From Raillietiella orientalis (Eukaryota): a stretch of 64,000 nucleotides of DNA. The position numbers were made by a program, and so were the translations under genes. The DNA is taken from NCBI GenBank assembly GCA_036172245.1, contig JAYWIR010000004.1:4464001-4528000 (forward strand), read 5' to 3'. Shown here piece after piece: positions 1-64,000 of the stretch. The notes below the pieces were generated by a model that searched no databases, was not told the origin of the DNA, and worked only from the letters and a program-made list of their open reading frames with translations. Numbering within the stretch: the stretch's first letter is position 1; each line of letters begins with the position of its first letter.

Positions 1-70
1 TTTGCATCAAAAAACTTACGGCTTCTTGCTGCTGAATGAACAGATGCTGTATCGTGCAGAAGAGGAAAGT
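1..70 (-). pseudogene. Mariner transposase pseudogene, 3' part (continues past window start)
   Basis: Minus strand reads ..LL-HDTASVHSAARSRKFF, matching the mariner W(F)LLHDNAPAH second-Asp motif. It joins the part at 1489+ once the insert 71-1488 is removed. Confidence 0.75.
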
Positions 71-1488
71 TTCTTACCCGGTCACGCCGGGACGTTTATT
101 TCCATAAACCAGCTGGAAACAGTTGTTTCCAACCGACAGTTACAAAAAAACAACGGAAATACACCACTGGCACGCAGGCTAGGAAAATGGTAGGTCCGGA
201 ACGGGGGGGAGGGGACTATAAACAAAAAAAGAACAGTCTAAATGGGAGGAAAAGGCCAGGGATCTTTGGTGACGCCCCGTAGTCACCGGGAAAGAAAAAG
301 AATCAAGGTACCAAAGACACTACAGAGCGAATGGGAGGTGGGGCGCGAAAACAAAAATAAAATCAAGAAGGAATGGACGTGGATCACCGGGATCGTCGTT
401 CGCAAACCGTAGGTAATCCGGCTGTAGATGCCGGTGAGCTCCTCCGTTGAGATTTCGGTTAACTGATGCCACCTAGTAGCCGCACTGATAAAGTCGGCCG
501 CCTTCCTGGTGACAGCATCGCTGCCCAGTGTTCTCCAGCACGTCTCGGACCGTGACGATGGCGCGGATGCAACCAACAGTCGAGATGATCTCTGCCGTCG
601 AAAGTCCTTGTGGTTGGAAGAACCGTCGCAGCACTTCATAATCGGTGCCCTCCGGTTGCAGGAGTGCTTCTGATAGCCTCCGCCAGAGTTCCTGGAGGGC
701 ACCGCAGTCCAAAACGACTGCGTCGCCCCGCACCGGACACAGTAGGGGGAAGCTACCCCACCGGAAACTCGGTGCCGCTGCTCATTGTAGCGCAAACCCC
801 AGTGCAAGGAGAGCAAAACGTGTTGCTTCCAGGCTAAGGGAAACACCGAAACGTCCAAACAGCACGGAGGGACTGTCAGTTCCTCGGGAACAGCACCAAG
901 AGCTTCTCCCCACCGAAGAAGTCCCTTTGCCGTAAACCGAAGAGTGGCAGCATCCGCCAGCTCGCTCGTATCCCATTCGCCGCGGAGTTTTCTTCTTCCT
1001 GAGATGGAGAACTCCCACCTAACCGGTTGGCTACTGTCTTCTCTAGCTCCGAGGGCAGACAGCGCTTCGGCAAGGGGCGTGGAGGCCAGGGTGGAGAGCT
1101 TCACCTCGTCCTGCATCACCTCTTGAAGTGACCGAGGTAGGAATTGACGCAGGGGGAGAAGATCTTAGGGACTCATTCCCTGAAATGCAGCCCAAGACTC
1201 AACAGATTCCTGCCGCCAAGCATTATAGTTTATTGAGCGTCAGGAAATCCACGATTGGGCTTCCAGCAGTGAGGCGAGTTGCCTCAAAGGATAGCCGAAC
1301 CCCTGCTTTCTGTGGCACCTGCCAGGCACCAACGAAAGAAGTCCTTCACTGCCGGCACACCTCCGTAGGAGGATGCGCGCAGGCGCACAGAGCGGGGTAG
1401 TCCAAAGTTTGGAACACATCGGGAACTGCACTTGCAGTCCGATCCGCTCCATCCTCAGGATGTCCAGGCCGGCATCCCGATGTGGAGT
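71..1488 (-). mobile_element. 5'-truncated L1/Tx1-like retrotransposon, copy A (ORF2 C-terminus, zf-RVT, 3'UTR)
   Basis: ORFs 1240..1452 and 283..1119 align by eye with the C-terminus of ORF 34257..36989 (LWTTPLCAPARILLRRC, ELADAAT, GLLRW, HWGL, CVRCG). Exact 14-bp TSD cagaagaggaaagt at 57-70 and 1489-1502. Confidence 0.9.
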
Positions 1489-2040
1489 CAGAAGAGGAAA
1501 GTCGCAAGTGTGGAAAAGAGCGGGACGAACGCTTCGAATGCGTGAAATTAATTGGTACGGAACGCTTCCATACTATCCTGCGTTAACTACACAGCACTCT
1601 CTCTTCATGCATGCCTCCCTGGCTATCGGGAAAAACGATCCCCATTGTCTCGACTCTCGAATTCTGGAATCGCAGTTTTGTTTTGGTCGTGGAGAATCTT
1701 CATTGGGGTGTTCCGAACTTTGGCGCTTCGTTTTTCCGGATCGCATGCGAAACACCAACTCTCACCACTGCTGAGAGTCTTGTCAAGAAAGTTTTTGTCT
1801 CTTTTGATCCCGTCCAGCAACGGTGTTCTCCCTTCACGTCCATGTCGAACTTTTGACAGAGGTCCAAAACACACAAGTTGCTTGGAATGCCTTTCCCTAA
1901 ACACACAGTCACGCTGCCTTGTATGCTATTTACGGAAGGTGCATGGCATGACCAATGCGTCCGTAAAAAAATCAGTCCTCAAACTTATGGACCTCACTGT
2001 CTGTGTTTCTTCCAGCTGTTCTGTTCCATTCGAAAGATCC
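1489..2040 (-). pseudogene. Mariner (Tc1/mariner) transposase pseudogene, central part
   Basis: Frameshifted motifs DKNFLDKTLSSGESWCFACDPE (GDESW), TKRQSSE..SPRPK, VVNAG and RIRSVRP. Upstream boundary is approximate. Confidence 0.8.
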
Positions 2041-2749
2041 TTCTAACAAGTTTACTTCTGAAATACGCTTTAATTCACCCCACCATCGAGGAAGACTTTG
2101 CCTTGATAGGTGCTCGTCAATCCTACCACCTTTTTATCACAGCGGAACATACACATCAGAACAGACACGTCACGCTAGTAGCCGGTAAACGAAGCGACCA
2201 CTGACTGAAGAGAAAAGGAAGAGATTCACCTAAGAATACACCTCCTTTCTCGTGGCTTGAGTTGCTGAGCAACAGTCCCCCACTCGAGTTTGCACCCTCA
2301 TTTCCCGTGGTAGGTTCCGGGCGTGGATTAGAGGTTCCGAGAAACAGAGAAACTCGTGTCCTGCCCCGAGTAGAAATACCAGAATTGACCCGAAAATAGA
2401 CGATCGGTAACTGGAACAAGCAGGCGAATTAATGAACGCTGAGCACAACACTAAAGTACGAGAAATACAGCACAGATCTCTGGAGTACAAAGCCTGCATA
2501 TAGAAAAATAGGCGGAGGATGGAACACAGATGGTCCCTTAAAAGAGGAGGTTGCTGAACAAATGACACCTATTTTTCTTCCCTGCAGGATAACCTTCAAG
2601 GAGTCAAGCCCTCGACTATGAAGGGATAAAAAACTTGAGGAATGGAAGGAAGGATCACTCCATCGCTGTAGGGACTCTAGAGAATTTTTCCTTGGGAGTT
2701 GTTCCGGGACCATCATTCCAGAATGTGAGGTACGCATGCATTCCATGCG

Positions 2750-4470
2750 TAGTTACACATACGGGTTATAAGGAGAGCTCTTTCGCTCTATGTTCCACAA
2801 CGCGAAGGACGAGACAAGAATGGGAGGAAGAGAGGAAGACTACAGAGTTCCCTCGACTGTGCAACGTACCCGAGAATCAGTGCTCTGGGATAAAAGCATG
2901 AGGATTGCAATGCCTCCCACATTTGCCCTATTTTTGAAGCTTCTCCCCGAGCGAGGCGACGTAATGCCGCTGCCTCTCAGACCAAGCATCACACGAGATA
3001 CGTCTTGGTGGAAGACGTGGCCAATGCTATGAACAGCCACTTCACCGGATTACTGGGGAAACCTGTCAAGCGGTCGTTCTGTAAGTGTCCCGCCGAGCCT
3101 CCACTTGCCCCTGGAGCGGGGTGGCACCAAGAGGGCGCGGTTGCTTGATTGCAAGAGAGTGCCCGATGTGCCTCGCCGAAGTGTGCAATGTGTACCAGAT
3201 GGAGGTGCTTCCGGCATGTGTATCGGGAGGGGAGGGAATCCGAGTTGAAAGGATGGAGGTGGAAGGGAGGACACATAGGGATTGCTCCTCCCAGAGTTTC
3301 ATTCCCGAAGAGCGATAATGTCCGAATGTTGATGCTTCCCTCTCCGCAGTGCACGAGCCAGCGGTCTGTCGCGGTCGCGCTTGCGGGAATCCGCATGTAG
3401 CGTTCAGGTTCCTTTCTCGGAGGAGGGCGCCAATAGAGAGCGGAAAAGGAGCAGTGTTCGTCCTCTTTGTTTTGCACCCTCCGTCCAGGAGCGACGCCAG
3501 GAGTTTTTCCGGTGTCTACTGGCTGAGGTATCTCAGGTGAACTGAGGGGCCCCGCGGGAGAAGTCAAGCAGCTACTGCCTGCGACCTGCCTCCAGAATGA
3601 AGTGAAATGCCCATTTCATAGGTGATTTCTGGAGGTCTCTGAGATGCTTTTCCGAGGGAGTTTCCAGCATTCCTGATTGCAGGGAACGATCAATGGAAGC
3701 TTCTCCACGATGTCTCACACGATCTGGGCTTCAGTCGTGTCAACGCCTCGACACGAGAGGACCCAAACCCTCTGCAGGGAAGGGGTAGCAAGGTCTCTCG
3801 ATTTAGAGGTGCCCTAGGGAGTTTTTCGCATTAGTTCGTCGACCTGCTTACGTACTTCTCTAGCGAAGAAGGGGCGCGGTCCTGCAGAGCTCTCTGCTGA
3901 TACCATGATGCCGGAATTCTCCGACACCTCCGCTTTGGCGGACAAGTCCGAAGACAGCTGCGGGCGGGTCGTCTCTTGAGTGCGCTGCTGCAGTGAGCGT
4001 GGGTGTGGAGGAGATCGTTTGGAGGTGGAACAATAGTGCTCTGGTGCGTTCAGAGTTGACACGAAGTGTGAAAATCTGTCTGCCTTCCTGCTGTGCTCTT
4101 CGCCTCACGAATTGCGGGTCTGCTGCTTCCAAAAAACCGGAGTCAGTGGTACCATCTGAATAGGGGGCAGTGTTGATTCAAAGGTTAGGAGGGCGTAGCC
4201 TGAAGCTACCCACGAGATCTTCAGAAGATGCTCCCAATTAGCGCAGTCGCAAGTGTAAAGGCAGTAAGTTTTTTTTTTCTTTTTGCTTTTAGGATTTGTT
4301 TTTTTTTGGGGGGGGGTTCGCCAAGTGCTGAAGAACCGTTCGCCTGCTTGGGGAAGGAGGAGGAGGAAGATGGACTCACAAGGCTCTTTATAAGCATTGC
4401 CCACTCCACTCAAGGGCGCGTGTAGCTTTAGTTGGTCCATCAACCATAAATACATGGTTTGTATCACAGC
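2750..4470 (-). mobile_element. Heavily decayed L1/Tx1-like ORF2 remnant (RT C-terminal half to zinc-binding end)
   Basis: Residual motifs across frames: VEWAMLIKSL (cf. DRVEW), WVASGYALLTFESTLPPI (cf. ASGLxVNxSKS), SRDLATP (cf. KDLAAP in copy 34-37 kb), HRALSCNQA. Confidence 0.45.
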
Positions 4471-4474
4471 TTCA

Positions 4475-5870
4475 GTTAGTGGGCAACCCCCGTAGGGACT
4501 GTCCCATGGATCCAGGAAGGCTCTGGAGGAAGGATTTTGCCTCTTTTAACGCTTGTCAGGGAATCCTTAGAAAATTTCTTCCTTATTCTCTCTAAAGGGA
4601 CCCCCGGAGGGGGAGGCCACTCCTCATTTCTTCGGAGAAGCAATGATGAGTGGAACCTAGAAAAGACCCGCTGAATTTCTCCTCCGGAGGGAACTCTCAA
4701 GGGAACTTCTCCATATTTACTCCCCTGAAGAGAACCCAGAAATTCCCAGTTTCTCTGAAGGGAGCTCCCCGAAGCGAGCAGCGCACTTCTGACTCTCTGA
4801 AGAGACAACCCCCGCGAGGAAAGAGGGGTGGGGACAACGGCTTCATTTTAACAACCGATGGAGGAACTCCGCAGGGAGCCGGGTCCTTGATTCCGGGAAG
4901 GACCTCTGAAGGACAACTTCTGATCTCTCCAGTCAACGTGGACATCCGGTTTCCGGATTTCACCAGTGCAGTCGGCATTGATACTGCTGCACTGGGGTCT
5001 CCCGTGCAACGCCCGCCAGCACCTGTGGACATGGGAGGGAGGGGTGAACCCAAACTGTGCAAGGTGAAGGAGCGGGAGTCCTTCTCGCACATCCTAGTGG
5101 ACTGTGTTGCTTTCCGTACCCTTTGGGGACTCTTTGCCGCGACACATGGAACCCCCGGCGCCAACGCCAGAGACGTTGTAAAGCTCCTCTTACCTGTGCA
5201 ATGCCCTCACGCCGGCCGCATCCCTTGCAGCGCTGTGCTGCCCACGGGGAGGGATCGTGGCTACATGGGGCTGCAGTGCCAGAGGAGGCCAGAAAGACAG
5301 GGGCACCATCTATTTTGCTGTCCACTTCATGAGGACAGCGTCAAGATGGTCCCATCTGGGAATCTTGAAACAGGAACTTGCCGGCATCATTACAGGGATG
5401 CAGAGGACGCCCTCCAGCACACAGTGATCCCTTACTGATCCCCCCTCCCCATTTTTTCGACTGTATGTTTTTTGTTTTATTTTTTTTCTCTTTGTTTGTC
5501 TCCCCTTCCCCTGTTTTCGTATGCATAAGTAAGGTGGCAGGATCAATCCTCCTGTCACAGACGTGTATGCTTATTCTATAAATGAACTCCCCGGAGTGAC
5601 CGGGTGTCAGCCAGTGCCGTACCCGAAGCTTACAGGCCATCCTACGAGAGGGACTCGAAACCCATGACGCACCCATTTCTCGACATCAATCTTTCCCAGG
5701 GAGGCATTTGAACTGCAACGTTTGGTACGACCCGCGGAGGCCGCAGCCGTGCGGTCGCCAGGGAGGCAGTAAGTTGGGAGGGATCAATTCCGAGTTCCAC
5801 ATTGTAATAAAAACAGCTCTTGCGTGGGTTCAGAGGGATTCGAGCGGTCGTAAGGCAGGAGTGGCTTGTT
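4475..5870 (+). mobile_element. LTR-like repeat family X, copy 1 (diverged), split by an L1/Tx1 fragment
   Basis: 4480-4810 and 5640-5760 resemble the reverse complement of 23437-24221 and 55480-56232 (shared ttccctccgga.gagaaattc and gggtttcgagt). Interrupted by 4970-5610. Confidence 0.6.
4970..5610 (+). mobile_element. 5'-truncated L1/Tx1-like copy B (zf-RVT + 3'UTR)
   Basis: SALILLHWGLPCNARQH and RESFSHILVDCVAFRTLW motifs, T-rich 3'UTR, terminal hairpin module at 5581-5610. Candidate TSD ccagtgc at 4963-4969 and 5611-5617. Confidence 0.8.
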
Positions 5871-5873
5871 TTT

Positions 5874-6280
5874 GGTGCCAATTACATGGCCGAAAGGACA
5901 CAATCCCTAAGGAACAAAATTCCGAATGTCTGATAAATCAGATAGGTCACAGTTCCGGAAGATTAAAATCCTGAAAACAGAATCAAGGGATAGATTGTGG
6001 GCAGCTGAAGGGAGGTGGTTACCCAAAGCTGGGCCAATTCTGAATTCCTTTTCGTTTTTCCTTATGTTCTTCTTTTTTATTTTCATTTTAATTTCCTTCA
6101 GTACTTTAAACCGTCAGCAATTGTTTTTTTTTTAATATAATTCATCGCTTCATTGTCGCATTGTTTCCAATGATCACTAAAGGAAACTCCCTCAACAAAT
6201 GACGAATTCTGTTTTCGAGATTGTAATCTTTCGGGATTTTAGCATTCGGGATTGTGTCCTTCGGGCTTATGAACTAAGCC
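5874..6280. mobile_element. MITE with terminal inverted repeats and subterminal TTCGGGATT-type repeats (Mutator-like)
   Basis: gccgaaaggacacaatccc (~5889-5907) is near the reverse complement of gggattgtgtccttcgggc (~6248-6266). Repeated ttcgggatt units at 6210-6265; non-coding interior. Confidence 0.65.
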
Positions 6281-22949: not shown

Positions 22950-24870
22950 CAGTACAGTGGAAATAATACGAGAAATAGAAAATATGAGAGGGATAAAATT
23001 TGTCTGAGAGGTAGGAGGGATAACATGATAGTTTGGGTACACGTGAGATTGAGAAGGATCTGATTAATAATGAGAAAAGCTTTTTTAGAGGACAGTAGTG
23101 TGATGATGGGAGCGGAAGAAGTTTGTAGAGTGGATGGATAACTAAAATTAGAATTCTGAATAGAGAAGCAGTGACTCCAAGTTTGTGCAGGTACTGAATA
23201 TAGCGCAATGGAAGCGAGAGAAATATCAGAGGGAAATATCGTTCGGGATGGATGGGTAGCAATGACGAGTAGATTGGAGAGCAAAAAATTTGTCAGATAT
23301 GAATATGTATGGGAAAAAGATTGAAGCGAAGTGGATGAAACAGTTTGTTAGATCTTTAATGATAAAGGATGGGCGAAAGGGTAATATATCTGGATTTCTT
23401 TTGGTTCCAAATAAATTGGTGAAGAGATTTATTAAGCGTCGGAGGCTTTGTAGTTACGGCTTCCGGGCGTGGCACCATGCGTCGCGGGTTCGAATACGCC
23501 GGCAGAAACTGACGCCACTGCGCCGTTGGGTTTCGAGTTTCTCCAATGGCGCTGGTTCGCCGAGACATTCGGGCGTGGCGCCAGTGGTCGTTTAAGTCGG
23601 AGGCCCCCGATGAAAGCCGAAACAATGGGATTCGATCTTTGGGTCCTTCTAGGAATAAAGGAGTGGGGAGTTCCCCTTCCTGTCGTGCAACGGAGAGCGG
23701 ACTCCTCTCACCGGGAGACCTCTCCGGTTTCAAGATGGAGCAGGAACCCTCATGGGCACTTCTCCAGTTGCTCAAAGGAGCGGACCCCCTCTGTTGCGGG
23801 GGGACCCTCCGAGTCGTCGCTTCTTCACAAGAGTGCAAGGAAGCAAGCGAGAGCGATTCCCTGCGGGAAGCTGCAGCGCCTCTTCTGAGTTTCGGAAGCA
23901 TCCCCTCGGGGTTCTCTTCAGAGGAGTGAACAGGAGCGGTTCCCTTGCGGGTTCCCTCCGGAGAAGAAATTCCTACTAGCGGATCCTTTCCGGGTTCCCT
24001 TCGGAGAAGTTGAAATGGAGAGGACAGCCCCTCCCCATTAGGGGTGTGTGTCCCTCCGGAGGGAATGAGGAAGGAGATTCCCTTCTGGATTCCCCTTCGG
24101 AGACAACCAGGGTGGAGCTGATCTACATGCGTGAGAGCGTGAGAGGAACGGACTCCGAGCCCTTCCTGGATTCATAGGGCGCATCCCCATCTCGGGGTGC
24201 CCCCTATCCTGAAGAATTACACTCCCCCTGCGGGTTGCCGCAGGCGGAGAGGCGTGTCAAACACAAAAAAAAAGAGACTTATGTAGAGGTAATAAAGGCA
24301 TAATATGCTAATTACAGTTATGAAAATGGGGAAGATAAAATATAGGGAATGGAATCGATTAGTTGTAGGGCTGGAAACGGAAACGTTTCATCATGAGTAG
24401 GAAATGATTAGGGTGATGGAAAATGGGTTGGTGATGACTGTTGTAGCTCTATAGAAAGATATTGTTCTGAAGAGAGGATGTATCCTAGGATTGATGTTAT
24501 TATTAGGAGGATAAGGCTCCTTATGTTCAGACTATGCAGGAGCAGTAATACAGTACACGGAAGATGTAGATGTACATTGTAAAGAAAAATAGGGAGTCAG
24601 TGTTGGCATGAATATGACGTAGTAGTCAGCCACTGTTCGTATTGTGTAAATGGGGGATAGTGGATATGAAGACTTATCTGGTGATGGTGGGATATTGAGT
24701 GTAGAAATAATGATTCCTGTGTTTAATTGGTCAATGTAGAGAATTGCTAAAAGCGATCCTAGTTCTCAGAAGTATGAAATGTTTGATGGTATGTGTATGT
24801 TCCGTGATGTGCGTTATTTATGGAAGAAACAGAGGGATGTTTTGAATTGAAGCATTAGTGCTATTTTGAG
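22950..24870 (-). pseudogene. CYTB: NUMT: cytochrome b pseudogene, interrupted at ~23437-24278
   Basis: ISYFWELGSLL, NSGWLLRHIHAN, PTTNRFHSLYF, PDMLPFRPSFIIKDL, IHPERYF..LHKLGV match CYTB heme and PEWY motifs. Confidence 0.9.
23437..24278 (-). mobile_element. LTR family X copy 2: short internal piece + polypurine tract + 3'-truncated LTR
   Basis: Minus strand AGGGGGAG (24222-24229) is immediately followed by TGTAAT (24221). High similarity to 55480-56232, which starts at the same TGTAAT with a different upstream flank. Confidence 0.7.
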
Positions 24871-24879
24871 GTATGAAAT

Positions 24880-25250
24880 AAAAAATCAGATGATGGGGAT
24901 ATTAGCTATCGAAAGGAGAATTTTGAGGAGAAAGATGAGAGGAAGTGGATGGAGTAATGGGTATAAGGAAAGTTTAAATAGGGGGGTAATGAATAGGCGT
25001 TTAGGATGGAATGTAAACACTTCGTTATGTGTTAGAGATGTTATGTGGGGAAAGATGATGAAGGTGCCTCTATTGTGAATGAGGTAGAGAATGATGGCAT
25101 ATGTGGAAAAGGAGTTAATGAGAGTGATGATGGATAGCGAGGTAAAAGCGAGTAGGAAAGCTGCGATTATGAGATTATAGGAGCATAATATCATAGAAGC
25201 AAAATAGGAAAGATATTATTATGATTATGGTTATGCAAGGGGATGCATTG
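24880..25250 (-). pseudogene. ND6: NUMT: ND6 pseudogene
   Basis: YAIILYLIHNSGTFIIFPHMTSLTHNE (cf. ILFLIFLGGMLVLFIYMTSLASNE); lies directly upstream of CYTB. Confidence 0.7.
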
Positions 25251-25319
25251 GTGTGGATTTAAGTTGATAGGTGTTTGATGGGACTAGTATCAGTCAGTAT
25301 TGGTGTTGATTTGAAACTG

Positions 25320-25600
25320 GAAATGGTACAAATGGTTATAGACTTAGGAATAATAACCGTGGAGATTCGTTTCAATCGAGGGTGTTTTTTCAGAAGTTTG
25401 TTGAGATTGGAAATAGTGATGTTGGGGAGGTTAGAATGTTTTTTTGGGAGAAGTGAATGTAAGCGTAAATAAATATGCAAGCACGAGATTTTGATTTTGA
25501 TGATGATACTTTATGAGGAGGTGATGAGTGGTTGATCTTGATTTTGGAGGTGTTAGGGAAAAGAAAAGGGATGAAATCATTTAAAGCAGTGTGAATGTAA
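25320..25600 (+). pseudogene. ND4L: NUMT: ND4L-like copy 1 of a diverged tandem duplication
   Basis: FFSSLLSLEMVML motif. Upstream attatggttatgcaagg..tttaagtt is repeated ~480 bp later. Confidence 0.6.
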
Positions 25601-25809
25601 TGTAATGAGGATGGTGATGGTATTATGGGATAATAGTGAACAAGAGAGCTATGATTATGGGGATTATGGGATTAGTATAGGAGAGGAATAAGGAGGGTGT
25701 TATAATTATGGCTATGCAAGAGGATTTGTTGACATAGGTTTAAGTTAAGGTAATAGGTATCTGCAGGGGTTAATTATTGTAAGTGCTAAATTCAGAACTA
25801 ACCAATAAT

Positions 25810-26090
25810 GAAAATAGGAATGATGGTTGTGCTTGGTTAGGATCGCGAAGATTTTATACAAATAAGGGGAATCTTCTGAGAAGTTTATTAAGATCAGAAA
25901 TGATAATGCTCCGGAGGTTAGGGTGTTTGTTTTTTGATGGGGGCAAGTGCATGGGGAATGAATGGGGGATTTTGATTTTGGGGGGATTCCGTCCGATTTT
26001 GTGAGTCAGGCGAGATTATGGTAATGATTATTTCGGTCTGTTAGTGTTATTCGATGTTAAGATTGATGGCTCTTTTTACTGTTAATGATG
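25810..26090 (+). pseudogene. ND4L: NUMT: ND4L-like copy 2
   Basis: KGNLLSSLLSSEMMML (cf. KHLLxxLLSLE), directly before ND4. Confidence 0.65.
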
Positions 26091-27210
26091 GTGAGTGTAT
26101 GGATATGATGAGGAGTGGTGTGTTGGAGTGTATTATTTTTGTGAATGATGAGGCGATTGAATAGAGAGCAATATTTGGGGAGGGTGGAATGGTCGATGGG
26201 GCAAGATATTGTTTGTTAGTGACGATTGTAGTATCATCATTTGTAAGGTAGGATGGGTTGTGGTTGTGAGAGTGGTATTCAGTGTTATAGAGCTGTATAG
26301 ATTAATGAGGGATGATATTTTTATGCTTTACGTATTCGTTGGAAGTGGAATGGTTCCTATGGTAGTGATTGTGGCGTGATGGGGTTAAGGGGAAAGTGCG
26401 AAAAACTATATGCTTGTGTATATAGTTTTTCGTAGCGATGGTGGAAAGGAAGTTTGGGAGCAGAGGGGTGATGTTAGTTCTGTATTTTTTGTGAAATTAC
26501 CAGTATGTGGGGTGCATTTGTGGCATCCTGAGGTTCATGTGGAGTCGGTTTCTTATGGTTCAACGATTCTTACAGGATTTATGATGAAGTTGAAGGGTTA
26601 TGAGTTGGTATGGTTATTTAGAACATGTAAGGGACTATAGGGATTTACTTGTTAAGAATTAGGATGGTAGCTGGTGTAATGAGGGGTTTAATGTGGTTTT
26701 GAAAGGTAGATTCTAAGGTAATTATAACTTATTCCTTAATTTGTTATATAAGGGTAATTATAGTTAGAAGATTGGAGGGCAAAGAAATGAGGGTGATAGG
26801 GTATGTCTTGTTAACAGCGACTCATTATGTTTCATGTGGTTTTTCTTGCTTAGAGGGTTGAGTGACTGGGGAGGCATTCAATAAATTTTAGAGGTGATCT
26901 AAAGACAGGATTTGATAGTGTGGAAAGTGGATTATAGTTTTGTGTTTGTTTAATATTCATGTTCATTGAGATTGAGGTGAATTGGGGAAGATTGTTATTT
27001 ATATGGGAATGGTAGGTGTAGTAGTTTATGTAGTGTTATGTTTAGACATAGTTATGTTAGTGGAGAGGACTGGCATGCGTGTATTATGATTAATGACTCA
27101 TGGAAGGATAGTTGTAAAGGGAGGATATAGGGTGATGATAAAGGATTTATATGTTATTGTTATTTACATAATGACAAGAGTGACTAGAATGATAATAATT
27201 ATGTGCTGAT
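26090..27210 (+). pseudogene. ND4: NUMT: ND4 pseudogene
   Basis: VKLPVCGVHLWHPEVHVES..GSTILTG..KLKGY (cf. HLWLPKAHVEAP..LKLGGYG) and VDSKVIMTYS (cf. DLKSLIAYSS). Confidence 0.85.
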
Positions 27211-27269
27211 GTCAAAATGGTTTAATGAGAATAACAGTTTGTGGTATCATGGGTAGTTTTGGCTTTGAT

Positions 27270-27560
27270 TTATATAGTAAGGTTAGTTGGAATAATGATT
27301 GTGAATTGAGCTTATGAGTTGTGTGATGGAATAGTGTTGTAGTATTGGAGTGGATTGTTATGCGTGGGAGGATTAGGTATGGGTGCATTGTTTATTTTGG
27401 ATTATAAATGTTTGTTTGTGGGAGGATTAGAATGGCGTATGTTCTAGTAGTATCTTTGTTAGTAGTACCATTCATGGATCTGTGGCCGAGCATATGTAGT
27501 GTGAAGAAAGCATTTTGTATTGTTGATGTTCTGATTTATAGGAAGGAGTGTATTATTAAT
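27270..27560 (+). pseudogene. NUMT: probable ND5 5' end
   Basis: The G/T-skewed tract continues after ND4. Inferred from position and hydrophobic codons; motifs are weak. Confidence 0.4.
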
Positions 27561-28320
27561 TGAAAGAATGCCGAGCAATATGTGTCCAATTCTCCATACT
27601 CATTTAGTTTTCCACATTGATTCTCCCTAATCATTTTGCTTTCCTACACTTTTCATGCCAAACATGCTAGTGGACCTTCATTAGAGGAAAGCATGTTGGA
27701 ATTCTTTTATGTATTTGATAAAAATGAATGGCCTGTCCTATCTGAAATTAAGAATGAAACTATTGACTTCAATCATCAGTTGCATCTCTGAATTTCTGAA
27801 TCTCAGAACCAATCATAAGAAATGCTGCTAGTGCTGCACATTCTCTGAAATATCATTCTTTGATCATTTCTATTCATCTTGCAGTGTTTGTCTCCCACAT
27901 GTTGCCCCTAAATTCACTATGGATTACGAAAATGGAAACGAACACTTCTATCTCTTTTTATAACCCTATCACTATCTTGAAAAAAAACCCGCAGTTGTTA
28001 ACATGTTAGAGCTAAAATTTCAACCCTTGCATTAATATTTGGATGCTCATATGGAACCCTCAAATGGAGTGAGACTCACTAATGGCGTGTTTCGTCTGTT
28101 CAAAAAAACCCTGTGCCTTTTATGTATTAAGACCCAACAGTGAGCTGCTTTTGTATACAATTAGGTGATATGCCTATTTATTCAAACGGCTTGCTCATGC
28201 TGAGCTTTCGAAAGAACTTTTAGAAAAGCACACTCAGCGCCTCCCTGCTTTTAGGGATGGATAGAACGGAGATCACATTCCAGCATGATTAATCATGCTG
28301 ATTAATCACATTCCAGCATG

Positions 28321-28822
28321 CTACCTTTCCTGAAATTCGCAGTGATCCTATTTATTTTTCAAAAATCTTTTTGTCTTCTGATCATTGTTCCATGTCAGAT
28401 TAAGAGTCAATTCACAATTCAATTTATCTTGACTTTTTCTCATATTTCTAAACCATTCTCTATATAAGTACCACTTCTTAACACTATCCTCCTAAGATCA
28501 GGCATGTCAGTCATATGACAATATCATTCCCTCTTAAAATCTTTTTTCTCTCTCATACTAATTTCCTATTTGTTACCATTACTATCGGCTTTTCATTTAT
28601 CACTCAAATTATGGAATATCGTATATTTAGATAATTCATTACGGGTTCCATCTTTGGTTTCACATTTTTCATTGCTACAGGATTGCATGGTCTTCACATC
28701 ATTGCTGGTCTCCCTCTCATCACCACGGACCTCTCTCTTATAAACATCATCTTTGAAATTCCTCTATGACATTGACATTTGGTTTGAGTCGTATTTGTCT
28801 TCCTGTTCCTATATCTATGATC
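28321..28822 (+). pseudogene. COX3: NUMT: COX3 pseudogene (3' two-thirds)
   Basis: LKFAVILFIF, NTILLSSG, GSIFGFTFFIATGLHGLHI and W.WH motifs. Confidence 0.9.
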
Positions 28823-30720: not shown

Positions 30721-30729
30721 CAACCATCA

Positions 30730-31450: not shown

Positions 31451-31459
31451 ATAATTACA

Positions 31460-32360: not shown

Positions 32361-34289
32361 CCTTCAATCATCTACTTAATTCAAAGATATTTGAATGGAA
32401 CAACGCCTATTCAAAGCACCTTGCTTGATCCAACAACATTAGACAGAAGCCGAAGAATTGAGAAAACGTAGTACGTGAGAGAGGTCGAAGGAAGGCCATC
32501 GTTGAGCCGTGTAGTTTACCCAAAACATCTTTAAGGACTTTTTGATTTCTCTTGCAGATGAAAGCACTTCGTCGCACTTCATATGCCAATGCAATAGAAA
32601 GCTCGAAGGAACCCCAGACTTTGTATGAGCAATACGAAGATTGCTCTGGCGTTACTAGAGATGGTCAACATCGGTTCCTTAGTTCCTGAATGACTTATGA
32701 GTGACTAACCAGCAATTAGGCAAGAGGCAAGAAGCCTTTTTCTTCCTCATTTCTTCTGTGGATTTGGCGTTCACAATTCAACCCATTTGCATTCCTGTAA
32801 TCCGACTTAGCTTGAGTTTGCCAACTCGTCTATTGATATCAACACCAAGGAAGATCGTTGAGACCAGAGCATAATGGAAAGTCTGGCTGAAAAATGGATT
32901 TCATTGGTCTTCTGGAAACTAATTTTTAATTGTTTTGTGCCCTCTTTTAGTGTGATCAGCGATGGCAGCATGTGGTGCAGGCATTCAAGTAACAGGAAGA
33001 GTCTATGATAAGGACAGAAAGTGAGGAGTAAAACTGGACAATGAGGGTGAGGATGGAAACTATCTCTTATAGGTTGGGGCATCCATCGGAATTCCCTTGG
33101 TTGGACACCTTCAGGCATCTTCATAGTTCTGGGAGGAGCTTCACCTTTAGCATCGGATTGCCCTCCGAGTTCTGAATCCATCAACATCTGGGACCGATTC
33201 CACGCTCTCCAGGTTCCTCAGTTTTGAGCTAAGGTGGGGGGAGGGTGGGGGGAGGAATCCTCACCGTCCTGTGGTCTGTACACGAGGATTCAGGGTCTTG
33301 TTCCCTCTAAAAAACGCGGTTCGCTCTAAAGATGACTCTTTGGAGTCGGTCTTGGAGCTTTTAAAGCACAGCGATCAAATCTCGTAGTCTCGCACATCCT
33401 CCACTGGCGCAAGACGCACGGAGACACGCGTCATTCCAGAAGAATCCTCCGAACTTCTTCGAGTTTCCTGCGGATCCTGTCTGGACGGCTATTCTTCTCG
33501 GTTCATCCTTACGGGATTCTCCTTCGCTTCCAGGAAACGATGCTCGAAATCCCATTAGGAGGCTGTGCTTCCCTCGCTCGAGTGGATTCTGTCAGCACCG
33601 GGAAAGGGTGTGCCTTTCAAAGTTCCAGGAAGAAACCGGGGGCCTGTGGCACTTCTCTTCCTGACTGGTTTACAGTGCAAAGTGCAAGAATCATGTTTGG
33701 AACTTTCTATCGTAAAGCCCACGATTTTTGGGGAGGGAGAGGGGAATGAGGTGCTTCCATTTTTCAGGAGTCGCCGGCAGAGGATTTAAAAAAAAAAAAA
33801 TGCCTGAGTCTTCCATTATCTTGTCATTTCCGGTCTGTCAGATCTGATGTCATCTAGAAAGGGCCATCAGCTCCCTCCTCCCTTCTTTGCTATGTCTCCG
33901 ATTTCTTTCAGCATGCGACCAGCGCGATGGTGAAAACCAGCAAAGTAAAAATGAAGAGGGCAGGCAAAACGCCGACCTTCTGGAGCACACAGAAGCTCGT
34001 TTTTCATCAGCAGTCTCTCTGATCAACCCCAAGATAACTGAGGGATACGATTTGAGAATTAAGCAGAGGAGTGCTATCAGGAGGAGGATGGCCATCTGTT
34101 CAAGATGTCTGGGAGGTCGATGAGACCAAGTTGTACGTGCTTGTAACTAAGCCCATGACGTCTTGAAGAAGATGGAAAGGGGGTGATGCAAGAAGCTACT
34201 CAATCGAAGGAAGCACGAAGTAAAGATTTGGCAGCAAGGGGGGAAGATGCTAGCTATTAAATCCTCAGCTGCAGGGATGCAGGGCATTC

Positions 34290-37200
34290 GATGGTAAATG
34301 TGAAAGTGGGAAAAGTGGTATCATTTCCTGGAATTTTGCAGAAGAACGCAAGTGATCGTAACCGTAAAAAAAGGAAGTGCGGGCCCACTCGGCAGCCGAC
34401 GACATGCTTGCGCTGGCTAATCCGGTGGGCTGACGAAGGATGGCCAGCTTCTCCAACTCTCGGTGGGCCTTGTCGATGGCGCGGGTGCAACACACGGTTG
34501 CAACGAGAGCACTTAGGTGCTCTCTTTGTCTTTAGAGACAGGCCGCCTGGCGTGAAGAAGCGGCGCATCAAGTCCCTCGCGGTGTCCCCCTGGTGCAGGA
34601 GAGCTGAGGCCAGCCTCCGCCAAAGTCCTAGGAGGGCACCGCAGTCCAGGAGCAGGTGCGGGAGCGTTTCCACTTCCCCGCACCGCTTGCAGTTTGGGGA
34701 GACAACTCCCCCGGAAACAAGGTTCGTGCGCTGGTTGGAGTGAAAACCCCAATGCCCCAGCATGATCACGTCCTGTTTCCACGAAAGGGGGAACACAGAA
34801 GTGTTCAAACAGGAGGGAGGGACCACAAGTTCTTCGGGGGCCACACTCAAGTGTTCACTCCATCGAAGAAGTCCCTTCGGGATGTGGCGAGGCGTGGCGG
34901 CGTCTGCCAGCTCGCAAGTCCTCCTGCCGCCAATGGGTCGTGTTGTTCCTGCGATGGTGCAGGCGACCTCCCATCTCGCCGGTTCGCAGCTGTCATCTCT
35001 TGCCCTGAGGGCTGACAGCGCGTCGGTGAGGGGCGTGACGGCCAGGCGAGTCCACTTCTCCTGGCTGTTGCACACCTCATCCACCGTGCAGTACGGGGAG
35101 AGGTGAGCGCAACGGAGTTCCAGGAGGGAAACATCCTGGTGCTTTGCCCAGCCATGCAACGGTTCCTGCCGCCAGGATTCAAAGTTCGTTGGGCGGCAGG
35201 AGATCCATTCCTGGTCTGCCAGGAGCCGGTGGAGCGGTTTCAACGGGAAACCGAAGCTATTCGTGGAGCGCTCCGTGTGCGGCCGGAGCGACAGAAGTCC
35301 ATCGCTGCCGGTGCAGCGCCGCAGGAGCAGGCGCGCGGGAGCGCACCACGGAGTGGACCAAAGGTTGGCGCACAGGGCCGACATCCGAAGCTGCACCTGC
35401 AGCTCGATTTTCTCCAGCGTCAGGATGCCTAAGCCAGCATCCCGACGCGGAGCCGCCAAGTCTTTGAGGCGGATCCTGGACCTCGCAGGTCCCCACAGAG
35501 CGTTCCTCAACAGGCTGTGCGCCTGGAGCTTGGCCGAGTAGGGGGGCGGGCAAACAAAAAGCAAGGGGCGCAAGAGGGGGGCAATGAAGGTGTTCCATAT
35601 CGTGGCCCGCTCCGGCAGGACGAACCTGCCATGGTGGAACGGGCTCAGAGCACTCGTAGCCTTCCGAAGGCAGTCCGACCACACTTCCACTGGGCTGATG
35701 TTCCCCAGCGGAACGCCCAGGTATTGGATGGACGAAGCGGTCAGGATCCCCAGGCGGATCCAGTCGGACTGCCCCTCCCACGCCGCACCAATAGGTACGA
35801 CCACGCTCTTGCTCCGGTTTACGCTCATGCCGGCTCCCCGGCGAATCAGCTCGAAGGAATCCTCGAGACTGGACGCCGGGGTGGTCATGGGTAAAAGGAG
35901 AAGCAGGTCGTCAGCATAGGCCGCCACGGACGGCGTTCCTGGACAAGAGCTCGGCAGGTTGGCCAGCGTCAGCCTGTACGCCTTGCGCTTCTTGAGGCCC
36001 GCTATGGCGGAAGACACTTCTTCCGCCGTGAAGGGCAAGTCAAGAGTGGCGCGTTCCTCCTCGTCGACCGCAGGGGAATCCGCCGGCAGAAGCAGCTCCG
36101 AGAGACTGCGTTCCGTCGGCTCCCTAGCATACAACGAGGAGTAGTAGCGCTTTAGGAGGCGGCGAACACCGGCCGCGCCCGAGCACTCCAGGTCCTGGTC
36201 GTCGAGCAGACAAGCCGCTCCTGACTGCCAGACCTGGCGCTCGGCCTTGGCCTTGTACTCCTCAAGGTACCGGACGTCCGGGCATCGGGAGAATTGGCGG
36301 GCCTGCAGAAACTCTCTGCTGTTGGCCACACCTTCTCCGAAGCCACGGGGAAGCAGGCGCAAGGGGAACCGGCTGCAGAACTCGCAGACCGATCTTTTCA
36401 GATCGTCCCAGTCCACGAGCTCCCGAACGGTCAAGCTCCGGAGATGCTGGCGGAGGTGCTCCGCAGCCACCGGATTTCTTAGCCAGTCGACCGGCAACCT
36501 CCAGACGTGCGTCGGAGGACCCTTGCCAGGCGGGAGTAGCTCCAACTCCAGCCTGTGGTGGTCGGAAAGCTCAGACGGCACGGGACCTCTTCGACCCACC
36601 CGACAATGCAGGTGATCGTCGAGGAACACATGGTCCGGCAAAGCACTCATCCCGGGATCGTCGGCCAGCAAATTCGAAGCGTGCACTGACGCGCACACCT
36701 CGTTCACCAGCCGCTCCTCCCGCCGAAGGTGTCTCCTCCGATAGCGCGTGGAGGTTAAAGTCCCTGGCAACAAGGTGAGCCACGTCGGGGCCGGAGTTGC
36801 TGAGCCAGCGGTCGCACAGTCTCTCGAAAAACTCCAGTTTCTCGGTGTGACGCGCGGAGCCGCACGGCGCGTACACGTTCGTGACGACAAGGTCGATCGA
36901 TTCGAACCACTTGAGAACAAGTTGGCCCACACGACCTTCCTCGTCGAAACAAACGTTCCGCACTGCCCCCACCACCCTGCTCCGGACAAGGAATGCTACT
37001 CCGCAAGTATTCTGGGAGCCTGACCTCCAATGGAGCGTCCCGCCAGCGCGAACTTCCAGATCGGCCGCTTGCTGCTCGGAGAGTGCGTGAATCTCCTGCA
37101 GCAAGGCCAGGTCGAAGTCGCGCAAGACGTTGGCAACCAATCGACTCTTCTCGTTGTCCTGCAGCCCGTTGACGTTCCAACAGGCCACTCGGACGCGACG

Positions 37201-37640
37201 AGAAGATGCGAGTCCGCGCATTGCTGCTATGGACATGGAGGTGCGTTCCTCGCCCTGTCCGGCGAGGCATCAGCCGGGAGCACGGCGGATGGGGGAGCGC
37301 AAGCGCTTCCTGTCTCCGCCGCGCCGCTCGCGGCTGGCTCGGTGGAGTCGAGGACCATTGCCTCGGGCTCCGAGGAGCATCGGGAACCGTTCCCGGCATC
37401 AGGCTCTTGCCTGGCAAGTTTCGGCTTGCGCGCAGCCCTGGCGTTGACCGGGGCTTGGCGAGCCTTTGCGCTGCCTTCGGACTCCACCTCGGAGTCCGAA
37501 TTCCGCGCGCGCGGCGGGCGTTGTGGGCGTTTCATACTCTTGTTGTGGGTACTGTCGTAGAACACGTGCACGCTGTTTGTCGTAAAACGGTACCCACAAC
37601 GCGAATGTGTCGCTTGCTCCCAAAGGCACCGAAGATGGCT
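34290..37640 (-). mobile_element. L1/Tx1-like retrotransposon: ORF1 C-terminus + frameshifted ORF2 (APE, RT with internal deletion, zf-RVT)
   Basis: APE motifs CWNVNGL, LLQEIH, CGVAFL, NVYAP, RDFN, SDH; then LPFTAEEV, AYADD, GMSVNRSKS, YLGV, CKRCGEVETLPHLLLDC. ORF1 stop (37227) overlaps the ORF2 start (37236). Confidence 0.92.
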
Positions 37641-56232: not shown

Positions 56233-56240
56233 CTGAAGAA

Positions 56241-56899: not shown

Positions 56900-58330
56900 T
56901 CACTCGTCTAGATCATAGTGGGAGGGATTCCTACAGCATTCCCCTCCAAATGAGGCCTGGAACATAATTTCATTCTGAGAAGCTTGCTCTTCGTCTTTAG
57001 AAGATCCTCACAGGGCCTATATGCATTGCATTCATAGATCTAGAAAATGCATCTGGAACGTCTCGCATGAACCGTTGCACCGACTCCGAAGGAAAGTGGA
57101 GTGGTAGACATTTCCGAAAAACATCTCCAAGGACCTATATAAAGATGCATCCACGTTTGTGCGAGCGGATTCGCAAGCCCACTAGGGACATTCAGATTCG
57201 TCGAAGGATAAAGCAGGTGTGTTCAGCCTTACGCTATTCAAGATGGCAATACGGAGTTAACTCTATTCTGGCAAGTGCAGATGATCTGGTGTTGGTTTTT
57301 CACCCGGATAAGCCGGAGCTTTTATTATTAAAATTTTACAATAAACTACATAATAAAGTCTGGTCTTTTTTGTAGTGTTTTCAGTCAGAACATGGTTCTG
57401 ACTGTCTTGTTGCACTTGTGCTTACCGACCCGCAGGCCGGTGAGGTCCTCTACACGGACGAAGGGGACGGGAAAACCAGAAAAAAAGAACAAAAAACAAA
57501 AACACAGGAGGGGATAAAGTTTTATGGGGAGAAGAGGGAAGAGAAGGGATCATGGTACGCCACTAGAGGACCTCTGCATCCGCTTTTGGATGCAGACAAG
57601 TGTCGGCAAATGTTTTCTCAGACGTCGCCATCGGCAAGCCCTCTCCATGGAGATGACTGCCTAATGAATCGCATCCCGGCTTTGGTGTCCTCTCCTCGAA
57701 TTAGTCCAATTCTCCAGGATTCCGCGTATGCAGCAAAGAACTTCAACAGACGAGGCTGCTGGCAGGGCGTCCCGCATCAGGAGACGATGGAAAATGTCTT
57801 TTGGATCGCCCACCGGAATGTTCAGAATCGACGAGAGTCGATCCTACATTGGGCGGAGGGCGACACACTCGATTAGGAAGTGGGGGAAGGTTTCCCATTC
57901 CACGCACCTAGCACAATTGGCATCTACACTCCCTGATGTCCAGTGAGAGAGGTGTGCTCTGCAAAGGAGTTCCCAATGCAGCACTAGCAACGCCGTCTCT
58001 GGTGTTGGTAGCAGAGTCCGAGGAAGGATTTCGCAGGTGCCTTCATCTGCTCGTGCTTTCTGTCAAGAAGCGGAGCTTTTTTCGGTCAATCGCCGCCAAT
58101 GCGCACCCATGCACTTCGGAGCCATGAAACCAAGAGGGATGAGGAAACCTACATTCCAGGTCGAACATACCGGCATCGGGAGCTGGAGAGGTCTACGCAT
58201 ACTTGGGCAAGCCATTCGTCTCGGGAATATTCACAAAGCGGACGCGACAGTGGATTGTGGGTTCCCTCCATTCCCTTATTCCAAAGCACCCGGGTCAAAA
58301 GAAGACCAGGGCCAGCGTCAAACTTCGAAA
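56900..58330 (+). mobile_element. Second NeSL/R2-type RT remnant, split by L1/Tx1 copy C
   Basis: ICIAFIDLENASG, IRRRIKQVCS, ILASADDLVLV|AESEEG, KPRGM..LGKPF (cf. TPKGI..YLGKPF in the 51-kb element). Confidence 0.7.
57297..57997 (-). mobile_element. 5'-truncated L1/Tx1-like copy C
   Basis: ANCARCVEWETFPHFLIECVALRP; terminal hairpin module at 57297-57326. Exact 12-bp TSD tctggtgttggt at 57285-57296 and 57998-58009. Confidence 0.88.
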
Positions 58331-61944: not shown

Positions 61945-62390
61945 TTACCACCCGGATACGCCGGGATGTTTATTCAAACTCTTCATATGGTCATGACAAT
62001 ACGTAGTGTAAGGCCCCACTAATGGCTAACATTTAGCAGGACCTGCTGGAACGACAGTACACAGACCAGCGTGTCTCCTCGGCAGTGGAGGGAGATGGGA
62101 AAAAAAAAAAAAGAGTCTGAAGGGCCAGGAAGGGATCACTGACCACTGAAAGGAGGGTCATCAGCGGCCAGACGCCGAAGTGGCAAGTCTCCTGTCGGAT
62201 CGCAGGCAGGGAGAAGAAGATAAGAGGTTGGACTATGAAAGAACTGGCGGATGCCACGACCCCGTGTGTCCTTCTGCGAGGAATTTTAAGATGGGGCGAG
62301 CTGCTGGGCATCCAGACGGATGACCTGAAGTGGTCCCCAGTGCTAAACGGATCCAGGATTCTCCCCCAGGGGATCCAGGACGAGGGGGAG
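61945..62390 (-). mobile_element. L1/Tx1-like copy D with inverted 5' segment
   Basis: 61945-62160 is a minus-strand 3'UTR with the hairpin module, homologous to 62391-62630. 62165-62390 is a plus-strand ORF2 piece (KWQVSCRIAG..WTMKELADATT..GILRWGELLG). Confidence 0.8.
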
Positions 62391-64000
62391 TTTTCACCCG
62401 GTCACGCCGGGGCGTTTATTGATAAACACTTTACATTTGCGGTACTAGGCCCCGCTACGGCCAATATTTCATGGGACCAGCCAGGAAGCCGGTTCTGAGG
62501 CCGGCTTGTCTCTCCTCGGCAGCGGAGGGGATGGAGGGTAAAACAAAAAGAAAAATAAATGAAATAAACAAAAAGAAACTATTTGGAGGGCCGGGAAGGG
62601 ATCACAGCCTGCTGGAGGAGGGGACCATCCTTTCCAGGATGCCCTCGAGGTCCATCGTCATAGCTCCCAGATGGGACCAGCCGATCGCGATTCGCAGGTA
62701 GCGACCCGCGTGTACGATGGGTCCCTATCGCTGCTTCCTCTGTTGGCTGCTCTCCACGCAGCCACAATCCTTCGGAGGCAGCAGAGCGCTGCCAGGGCTG
62801 AGGCTGGTTGCAGGGCGTCTCGCACGAAGAGGAGGCGCACAGCGTCTCTGGGGGGGTTGCCGACCGGCATCCGGAGGGTCGTAGCAAAACGTTCCCACAA
62901 GGGCCGGAGGGCAGCGCAGTCCACTAACAGATGGGGGAGGGATTCCTTCTCCCCGCACACTGCACAGTTCTGTCCCACGTTCCCCAACGTCCAGTGGTGG
63001 CGGCGCGCATTGCAGGGAAGACCCCAGTGCAACAACAGCAGCGCCGTTTCCTGCAACTTGAGGGGAGAGTGGATGAGTCTCTGAACAACGGGGGCCACTC
63101 TAGGTCATCCGCCGGGTTGCCAAGCAGCTCGCTCCATCTCTGTATTCCACGCGGGTGAACGCTTGAGGTCGCGGCGTCTGCCAGTTCCTTCATGGTCCAC
63201 CCACTTAGATCCTTCTCCTTGCCCGCTATCTGGCAGGAGACTTGCCATCTCGGCTTCCGGCTGTTTTGAAGCGCCCTTCGTAGGAAGGGCAGCACCGTGG
63301 CCAGTGGGGTCGTCTCCGCCCAAGTGCTTCTGGCGGGACACACGATCATGTTCCGCAGCGTGCAGCGGGTGTAGATGCCGGGACGCAGGCGGCTGCAGGA
63401 TTCTCCACTGATGTCGTTTAACTTTGCCCACGTTCCAACTGTTTCTTCCAGCCATGCGCTGGAGTTGGCGGGGCTGCATACCATCCAGCCGTTCTCCTTA
63501 ACCAGTGTGGCCATGTGTCCGAGGAGAAGGCCGCATCTTCCGGTCTTCCGGCCGGGGCACCGCCAACCACCGGCGGACGTCCCGGAAATCGAGGTGCCAA
63601 CCGTGTTCCCTTCGTTCGCTCTTCTCCGCTGGAATTTGAACCAGGTGTTCGCGAAAAGCAGGTTGGCGTCCATGCTCCGCCTGGGAACAGCGTAAGTCTG
63701 TTCCGGGCTGATGTTTTTCTCTACCCTTCCTAATCGCTCCGACCAAAGTTTCGCCAGCTACTTGGCGTCTTGGCCGTAGTAAGGCCTGGTACCACGAATT
63801 GTGGAGAATTTATAATAAACCCCCCGGTGTGACCGGGTGACAACCAGCTACTTGGCGTCCGCGTTCAACACGGTGATCGGACGCCAGTTGCTGAGGTTCC
63901 GTAAGTCCCTCCCTTCGGGAGGAGACGCATCCGTGCCGATCGGAAGGAGACGGGAACGTCGCCTGTCTTTCAAATCAGCAGCGTTAAGCGCTGCACCAGG
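62391..64000 (-). mobile_element. L1/Tx1-like copy E (RT start, large internal deletion, ORF2 C-terminus, 3'UTR); extends past window end
   Basis: LSNWRPITVLNADAK*LAKL..ISPEQTYAVPRRSMDAN, then a jump to the post-RT region; HWGLPCN, NCAVCGEKESLPHLLVDC; hairpin module at 62391-62420. Confidence 0.88.
63770..63843 (+). mobile_element. 74-bp extreme 3' end of an L1/Tx1-like element (copy F), inserted antisense into copy E
   Basis: Exact 16-bp TSD ccagctacttggcgtc at 63754-63769 and 63844-63859. The insert is homologous to the last ~75 nt of copy E. Confidence 0.9.

Follow-up and report, generated by a model that had tools for sequence, protein, structure and literature searches.

A 30-nt AATAAA and inverted-repeat module, probably a functional tail, at the 3' ends of tail-less LINEs of the L1 group

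Six copies of a 30-nt module, in which AATAAA is followed at a fixed distance by the inverted repeat CCCGG/CCGGG and six last bases, are present in the window, by which we mean the whole 64-kb stretch of DNA that was analysed. Each of the six forms the 3' end of a fragment of a non-LTR retrotransposon. We conclude that the module is real, non-random and probably a functional LINE tail. Our preferred reading, which we hold with moderate confidence, is that it represents the conserved 3' tail of diverged, deep-branching L1-type LINEs and would act as a 'stringent-type' template-recognition element, fixing the start of reverse transcription (RT) 6 nt past the hairpin. The basis of these statements is six copies in one 64-kb window, with both ends known for three only.

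Template choice by LINEs is understood in mammalian L1, which depends on poly(A), and in a few elements of the L2, R1 and R2 types that depend on a hairpin. An evolutionary question is whether the L1 group was originally 'stringent' (PMC3472496; PMC4176376, the latter available in part). Tail-less L1-type lineages with a 30-nt terminal signal and a fixed end would make a 'stringent' L1 origin testable, and the target of such a test would be very small, namely the stem with its loop, the UG that follows the stem, and the spacer of 6 nt. Moreover, elements that carry the module have no A-tails and hence cannot be delimited in annotation by searching for A-tails.

The module and the ends of the elements

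The window was scanned with the module pattern AATRAANNNYCCGGNNNNNCCGGG (AATRAA-N3-YCCGG-N5-CCGGG), allowing up to one mismatch, and 100 dinucleotide-preserving shuffles served as control. The pattern matched six times in the window and not once in any of the 100 shuffles. A shorter pattern, CCGGNNNNNCCGGGTR (CCGG-N5-CCGGGTR), found only those six modules in the window, with a mean of 0.04 and a maximum of 1 match in the shuffles. All six lie at the coordinates and on the strands given by the earlier note (Table 1). They can be aligned without a gap, which fixes the 6+3+5+5+5+6 spacing and bears out the layout described there. Seventeen of the 30 columns are invariant: A1, A2, T3, A5 and A6, the 5' stem arm except for one of its five bases, T17 in the loop, the complete 3' stem arm, T25 and A29. 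The loop reads NGTGA in four modules and CKTAT in two, with an invariant T at its third position. After the stem, the T is invariant and the following G is present in 5/6 modules. AATAAA, which ends 24 nt upstream of the last base of the element, is exact in five modules and carries one mismatch in module B (AATGAA), and the final two bases are AA in 5/6. Spacer, loop and the last four bases vary among the modules.

A covariance model, as the earlier note had proposed, was built from the six modules and scored over the whole window without filters. The six training copies reached 40-48 bits and the next best match 10.9 bits (E 4.8), so that no further, weaker copy came to light in the window. 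As an outside rate control, a stricter pattern (AATAAA-N3-YCCGG-N5-CCGGGTG), which by inspection is fitted by four of the six window modules (C, D, E and F), was run over 596 Gb of prokaryote genomes. It gave 42 matches in 41 loci, which were terminator-like, and tblastn found no LINE relatives among these 41 loci. A search of viral contigs with the module pattern returned 0 matches. Chance resemblance, or an artefact of assembly or annotation, is thus ruled out by the shuffles, the prokaryote rate control and the target-site duplications (TSDs). With six matches against none in the shuffles, only 42 matches of the stricter pattern in 596 Gb, every copy at the 3' end of LINE-homologous sequence and three exact TSDs of 12-16 bp, we assign this explanation a negligible probability.

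Comparison with Rfam gave no family at gathering score anywhere in the window. A permissive search (E up to 10) of positions 61800-64000, which comprise modules D, E and F, placed nothing on the modules, the histone 3' stem-loop included. A histone-type 3' stem-loop was rejected because its Rfam model matched neither at gathering score in the window nor in the permissive search on D, E and F.

Table 1. Positions of the modules, of the elements that carry them, of their TSDs and of related LINE sequences in the window
Feature	Positions	Strand	Description
Module A	71..100	-	AATAAA-CGT-CCCGG-CGTGA-CCGGG-TAAGAA; 3' terminus of element A
Element A	71..1488	-	5'-truncated LINE copy, 1418 nt; ORF2 C-terminus 53% identical to G
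TSD of A	57-70 and 1489-1502		exact 14 bp, ACTTTCCTCTTCTG
Module B	5581..5610	+	AATGAA variant, ends TGTCAG
Element B	4650..5580	+	ORF2 C-terminal remnant and 3' UTR; 4650 not an established 5' boundary
Element G	34260..37531	-	longest relative in the window; AP-endonuclease and 912-aa ORF, RT partly deleted
TSD of C	57285-57296 and 57998-58009		exact 12 bp, ACCAACACCAGA
Module C	57297..57326	-	sole copy with a stem change (U-G at stem base); loop CTTAT
Element C	57297..57997	-	5'-truncated copy, 701 nt
Module D	61945..61974	-	
Element D	61945..62204	-	3' UTR only, aligning with those of E and F; 5' limit about 62165-62204
Fragment H	62163..62366	+	ORF2 C-terminal piece, LINE group of the module-bearing elements
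Module E	62391..62420	-	identical to the consensus of the six
Element E	62391..64000	-	internally deleted LINE copy; runs past the window end
Element F	63770..63843	+	74 nt, extreme 5' truncation; nested in E; module 63814-63843
TSD of F	63754-63769 and 63844-63859		exact 16 bp, CCAGCTACTTGGCGTC

When the ORF of element G was used as a tblastn query, matches were obtained immediately upstream of modules A, C and E as well as in fragment H. The TSDs of A, C and F begin at offset 0 after the module, with nothing between them and the six bases that follow the stem; shifting the boundary by -1 to -8 into the element gave no longer TSD match for any of the three. A poly(A) tail is found in 0/6 copies; no A-run follows the six bases after the stem, neither in the TSD-bounded copies (3/3) nor in the others. 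Exact TSDs together with truncated 5' ends identify A, C and F as classic 5'-truncated insertions made by target-primed reverse transcription (TPRT) without an A-tail. The three duplications of 14, 12 and 16 bp, their start 6 nt after the stem and the missing poly(A), all of which the earlier note had reported, were confirmed. The TSD that it thought probable for B was not found with one mismatch allowed, nor was one found within the window for D or E. Element E, in which F is nested, extends past the edge of the window and adjoins or sits inside fragment H, and element D adjoins H, which lies in the opposite orientation; the junctions at their 5' ends accordingly are disrupted or fall beyond the window, and for D and B we consider the 5' end probably to be so. 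With F inside E and E in or beside H, two of the six copies occupy LINEs of their own group. In element G neither a 3' UTR nor a module can be recognised, and past about 34440 it has nothing homologous to the other UTRs; without a recognisable 3' end it neither supports nor contradicts the reading of the module.

The target that allows annealing to poly(A) in L1 is TT/AAAA. The target sites of A, C and F read ttgcg/AC, ctgct/AC and tttcg/CC (the slash marks the insertion point), each of them containing G or C. All three TSDs and their flanks differ, but two of the six copies lie in or beside LINEs of their own group, as described above, and three sites are too small a sample for judging whether insertion is specific. 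As they stand, these sites resemble neither the L1-like TT/AAAA nor one Tx1-like specific site.

Diverged lineages and their placement among LINEs

Identity of the ORF2 C-terminus to that of element G amounts to 53% in A, 35-44% in E, 32% in C and 29% in B, where it was measured over the knuckle. The earlier note had described one family. Judged by ORF2 C-termini that share 29-53% identity and by UTR identity at random level, the copies instead stem from at least four diverged lineages. Identity of the module is 0.79 over all 15 pairs. Three blocks of the upstream UTR show an identity of about 0.55, 0.49 and 0.55 (range 0.48-0.55) over 15, 10 and 10 pairs, F being left out wherever it has no sequence, and random sequences treated with the same aligner give 0.51-0.55. 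Upstream UTR identity is therefore at random level right up to the module, and the module is conserved far more highly than the neighbouring UTR, a comparison that the earlier note had named among the checks of its proposal. Such a contrast would be expected of a signal that defines the 3' end or sets the RT start. The 3' UTRs are built alike: a GTGATCCCTTCC-like box close to the stop is followed by a tract rich in T, one rich in C and a variable part that leads up to the module, with a T-rich, TTTAT-like box just upstream of AATAAA.

Inserted copies decay neutrally, so that the contrast between module and UTR reflects constraint on, or exchange between, active source elements. From a module that was kept while UTRs and proteins diverged we infer constraint on the active sources. 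We regard this contrast, which is drawn from the sequences of the copies, as the strongest argument for a functional module.

Several features bear on the clade of these elements. Element G encodes an AP-endonuclease (PF03372, E 2.5e-10, 36574-37269 on the minus strand) directly upstream of the RT-bearing ORF, and this ORF of 912 aa contains a YADD box and, at its C-terminus, a CX2CX7HX4C knuckle. The knuckle is visible in G, E and C. Matches to zf-RVT (PF13966) lie upstream of modules E, B and C with E-values of 1.2e-4, 0.036 and 0.049, all below the gathering score. None of the window copies has an intact RT, and the protein P0003 was therefore taken as proxy. P0003 has 619 aa, carries RVT_1 and is the sole close relative among 5.8 billion proteins; it is 53-55% identical to G and 40-84% identical to the RT and C-terminal pieces of E. 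Comparison of P0003 with human L1 ORF2p gives an E-value of about 1e-39 across the whole RT, against 7e-17 or worse with R2 proteins. Its best database matches are only 28-30% identical, and many of them combine Exo_endo_phos, RVT_1 and zf-RVT. Protein-guided locus searches of metagenome contigs and viral contigs revealed no relative.

In a tree of all 85 rows that the database search with P0003 had yielded, P0003 falls on a side of 42 rows (SH-aLRT 99) together with 13/13 zf-RVT rows, and the opposite side holds 5/5 PF14529 rows and 2/2 PF13894 (zf-C2H2) rows. This tree comes from a quick search with midpoint rooting, P0003 forms a long basal branch in it, and named CR1, RTE, I or Tx1 references are not among its rows. 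The assignment of the elements to the APE-type LINEs of the L1 group, as a deep branch, is supported by these sequences; L1 and Tx1 are left unseparated because of the long unresolved basal branch, the quick search and the lack of named clade references. The label L1/Tx1-like given beforehand is supported by the AP-endonuclease, the L1-like RT and the position of P0003 among zf-RVT rows in the RT tree, and the knuckle is putatively of the zf-RVT type. A feature search returned one row, 'Transposon TX1 ...', at a score of 0.88, and this was the sole Tx1 lead.

The inverted repeat and possible roles of the module

The inverted repeat CCCGG/CCGGG offers a potential stem of 5 bp with a loop of 5 nt in 6/6 copies, and 30/30 stem cells pair. 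Four of the five stem pairs never vary. The fifth varies on one side, from C-G to U-G in copy C, and this change of C to U leaves the sense RNA with a G-U pair at that position. Compensatory changes in the stem number 0 among the six copies; with four of the five pairs invariant, this is evidence neither for nor against pairing. The hairpin is part of the predicted minimum-energy fold in 6/6 ends of 48 nt (in a shifted register in F and with 4 + 2 pairs in C) and in 4/6 ends of 100 nt. Folding energies are mostly no better than those of shuffles (z -0.4 to -2.1 for 48 nt, +0.3 to -2.5 for 100 nt). On these predictions, an RNA hairpin structure is plausible but unproven. The proposal in the earlier note of a structure-defined RT start or 3' processing site thus keeps its fixed end and its conserved module, but 'structure-defined' was an overstatement, given the absence of compensatory changes and folds that are mostly comparable to shuffles. 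In the folds predicted for 5/6 ends of 48 nt, AAUAAA also pairs with the U-rich box upstream of it to give a second hairpin, in differing registers and with weak z-scores.

A near-invariant stem beside a variable loop and variable spacers fits a reading of the sequence better than a pure structure. The block might accordingly be kept as primary sequence and not as RNA structure, for instance as a binding site on DNA or RNA, whether single- or double-stranded, or as a site for second-strand synthesis; or else the tail might have been exchanged between lineages by template switching or recombination, in line with the same tail being present on lineages whose UTR identity is at random level up to the module. 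We regard this pair of explanations as rather improbable. Against primary sequence stands the sole stem change, a single case, which keeps the pairing in sense RNA. As to exchange, spacer, loop and the last four bases differ, so that the tails are not recent identical transfers, and exchange would itself imply that the tail is needed.

According to our preferred reading of a stringent-type template signal, the repeat would fold in the RNA into a hairpin of 5 bp whose loop has 5 nt. The ORF2 protein might then bind the hairpin together with the invariant U and the near-invariant G 3' of the stem. Such binding could position the template so that the cDNA starts a set number of bases further downstream, and the nicked target would not have to anneal to poly(A). 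At poly(A) sites of animals, AAUAAA is located 10-30 nt before the site of cleavage. In the modules it is exact in 5/6 and lies 24 nt from the terminus, so that it is probably the signal for cutting the transcript at, or close to, the last base of the element, and any poly(A) tail added there would be skipped by the reverse transcriptase. A stringent-type signal would explain the exact ends, the absent tails, the targets that are not A/T and the conservation of the module.

The same position of AATAAA within the range of 10-30 nt would also suit a module that is mainly a signal for the formation of RNA 3' ends. Here AAUAAA, the U-rich box and a hairpin that only fixes the spacing would cause the host to cut 6 nt after the stem; reverse transcription would start at whatever end results, with no tail or a very short one, and the hairpin would not be read by ORF2. 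The T-rich, TTTAT-like box before AATAAA and the AA ending of 5/6 copies are in agreement with this, and AATAAA also terminates vertebrate L1s (PMC5381506, available in part). We nevertheless consider a pure 3'-end signal unlikely. Cutting at a poly(A) site normally brings a tail that L1-type copies inherit, and 0/6 copies have one. The downstream GU-rich element cannot travel beyond the mobile element's own end. Moreover, a mere spacer would not call for the degree of conservation seen in the stem, the invariant U of the loop and the UG that follows the stem, and neither the histone 3' stem-loop nor another Rfam family matches (E-value search on D, E and F only). As for the distinction between a site of RT start and one of 3' processing, the DNA alone fits both.

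A more far-reaching version of the stringent-type reading is possible, and we put it forward tentatively: a deep-branching lineage of the L1 group may have given up poly(A)-primed reverse transcription altogether, with an ORF2 protein that reads the invariant CCCGG/CCGGG hairpin, starts the cDNA exactly 6 nt downstream and skips the tail arising from the element's own AAUAAA. If true, the 'stringent ancestral L1' state put forward by Ohshima and Okada would survive in these elements, outside green plants. They would also provide an L1-type enzyme with a compact, experimentally tractable template signal of 30 nt.

Comparison with known systems

In R2 elements the 3' UTR defines the start of target-primed reverse transcription, and poly(A) is not involved. 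The elements of the window are similar in the precise position at which the template would start without a poly(A) tail. R2 differs from them by its restriction-like endonuclease, by a 3' UTR that is large and structured and by its use of rDNA as the one target, and P0003 is far closer to L1 ORF2p. R2Bm and R2Dm are classed as stringent, and it is well established that L2, CR1, R1 and R2 elements direct reverse transcription by means of 3' hairpins (both in the available part of PMC4176376). In the L2 clade, UnaL2 of the eel and ZfL2-1 and ZfL2-2 of the zebrafish have a 3' stem-loop that is bound by the cognate ORF2 protein and needed for retrotransposition (PMC4176376, same part). A potential stem-loop near the 3' terminus is the likeness to these elements, which serve as a precedent for the binding proposed here. 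Stringent LINEs of L2 belong to another clade and end in (TGTAA)n, which is thought to permit template slippage (PMC3747384, available in part), whereas the window elements have a fixed, non-repeated end of 6 nt.

Vertebrate L1s share with the window elements the terminal AATAAA as well as poly-T and C-rich pyrimidine tracts in the 3' UTR (PMC5381506, available in part). In all vertebrate L1s studied, AATAAA is followed by poly-A; in the window elements it is followed by the hairpin and 6 nt, with no tail (PMC5381506). Mutsu, a member of the Tx1 clade, is recognised by a 3' stretch of poly(A) (PMC5340908, available in part).

The closest precedents come from plants and algae. Stringent LINEs of the L1 clade are known from the monocot '1a' lineage, with LINE1-1_ZM and its partners ZmSINE2/3, and from Chlamydomonas, with L1-1_CR (Ohshima 2012, PMC3472496). 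Conservation in their last ~45-80 nt is much higher than elsewhere, which is taken as a specific requirement of the template for RT start (PMC3472496). Membership in the L1 group, a conserved terminus and a potential hairpin near the 3' end are common to these elements and to those of the window. Plant and algal stringent L1s, however, end in poly(A), whereas the window elements are tail-less (PMC3472496). In the stringent L1s of plants the stem co-varies and the loop and 3' flank are conserved; the window module presents the opposite, an invariant stem and a varying loop (PMC3472496). Unlike the stringent L1s of plants and algae, the module has AAUAAA 3 nt before the stem (PMC3472496). Partner SINEs share the tail of the plant elements (PMC3472496), and none was seen in this 64-kb window. 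Families of L1 without a 3' repeat account for 9/233 in flowering plants and 5/15 in green algae (PMC3472496).

A literature search yielded no description of the module or of a tail-less, hairpin-ended L1/Tx1 element; Repbase was outside its scope, so that a matching family may exist there. As both hairpin-dependent LINEs and tail-less families of the L1 clade are on record (PMC3472496), the idea is unusual for L1, as the earlier note had stated for L1/Tx1, but it is not new. The window elements join known ingredients in an unusual way, combining L1-type proteins, AAUAAA, an invariant candidate hairpin and a fixed 6-nt end with the absence of a tail.

Internal deletions and nesting of LINE copies

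Element G, the longest LINE relative in the window, and element E, a copy ending in the 30-nt module of AATAAA, hairpin and 6 nt, are internal-deletion derivatives. As compared to P0003, a 619-aa RVT_1 protein and the one close database relative of G, approximately 230 residues of the reverse transcriptase (RT) fingers and palm are missing from G, while in E an early RT motif is followed directly by the C-terminal domain. E is part of a LINE nest: it hosts the module copy F and lies beside or within the oppositely oriented H, an ORF2 C-terminal fragment, which in turn adjoins the module copy D. D together with the inverted H could be a 5' inversion of the twin-priming type, or else two separate insertions. 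In the window, LINEs of the same group host two of the six module copies, perhaps a sign of a target preference.

A U-rich box preceding the module

A TTTAT-like U-rich box lies 5' of AATAAA, 2-10 nt before every module. Folding predictions for the 48-nt ends show the box paired to a part of the hexamer in all copies except B (5/6), in differing registers. It may serve as the upstream element of a poly(A) site, or it may form a second small hairpin masking the hexamer.

Features of the window discussed in this part
Feature	Position	Strand
G+C-rich stretch	1-6000	
U-rich box, examples	101-112; 62421-62432	-; -
Interspersed repeat, copy pair	23436-24223 vs 55474-56234	
Interspersed repeat, copy pair	50577-50653 vs 56265-56341	
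Mitochondrial-DNA insertion	24200-32400	
Cytochrome b fragment	24217-24813	-
Perfect inverted arms	25833-26411 and 31708-32286	
Further inverted arms	25760-25834/32286-32360	
Further inverted arms	26482-26591/31476-31585	
Proton_antipo_M piece	26389-26640 (mirror copy 31463-31687)	+ (first copy)
cox3 fragment	28468-28743	+
Element G	34260-37531	-
Second RT fragment	52433-53103	-
LINE nest	61945-64000	
H	62163-62366	+
Element E, stretch with the internal deletion	62927-63757	-

Other repeats and probable repeat DNA

Around elements A and B, G+C content is 52-53%, as compared to 36-44% in most of the window. This stretch carries long ORFs on both strands, and a Pfam search of it gave no matches. 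Since element A is inserted into it, the stretch is probably older, unclassified repeat DNA. Both strands of an unrelated interspersed repeat, with 84-96% identity between copies, contain long ORFs, and Pfam returned no match. A second, distinct L1-like RT fragment (RVT_1, E 1.6e-5) is matched in tblastn by the proteins P0004, P0010, P0014 and P0022; neither the module nor a recognisable 3' end was found close by.

A mitochondrial-DNA insertion

The window also contains a decayed mitochondrial-DNA insertion laid out as an inverted duplication, across which GC skew is about +0.5 and then flips to -0.5. The G-rich strand carries the Proton_antipo_M piece (nad4-like by eye) and the C-rich strand the cytochrome b and cox3 fragments. 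Such a split suggests that the source mitochondrial genome carried genes on both strands, like the mitochondrial genomes of many protostomes.
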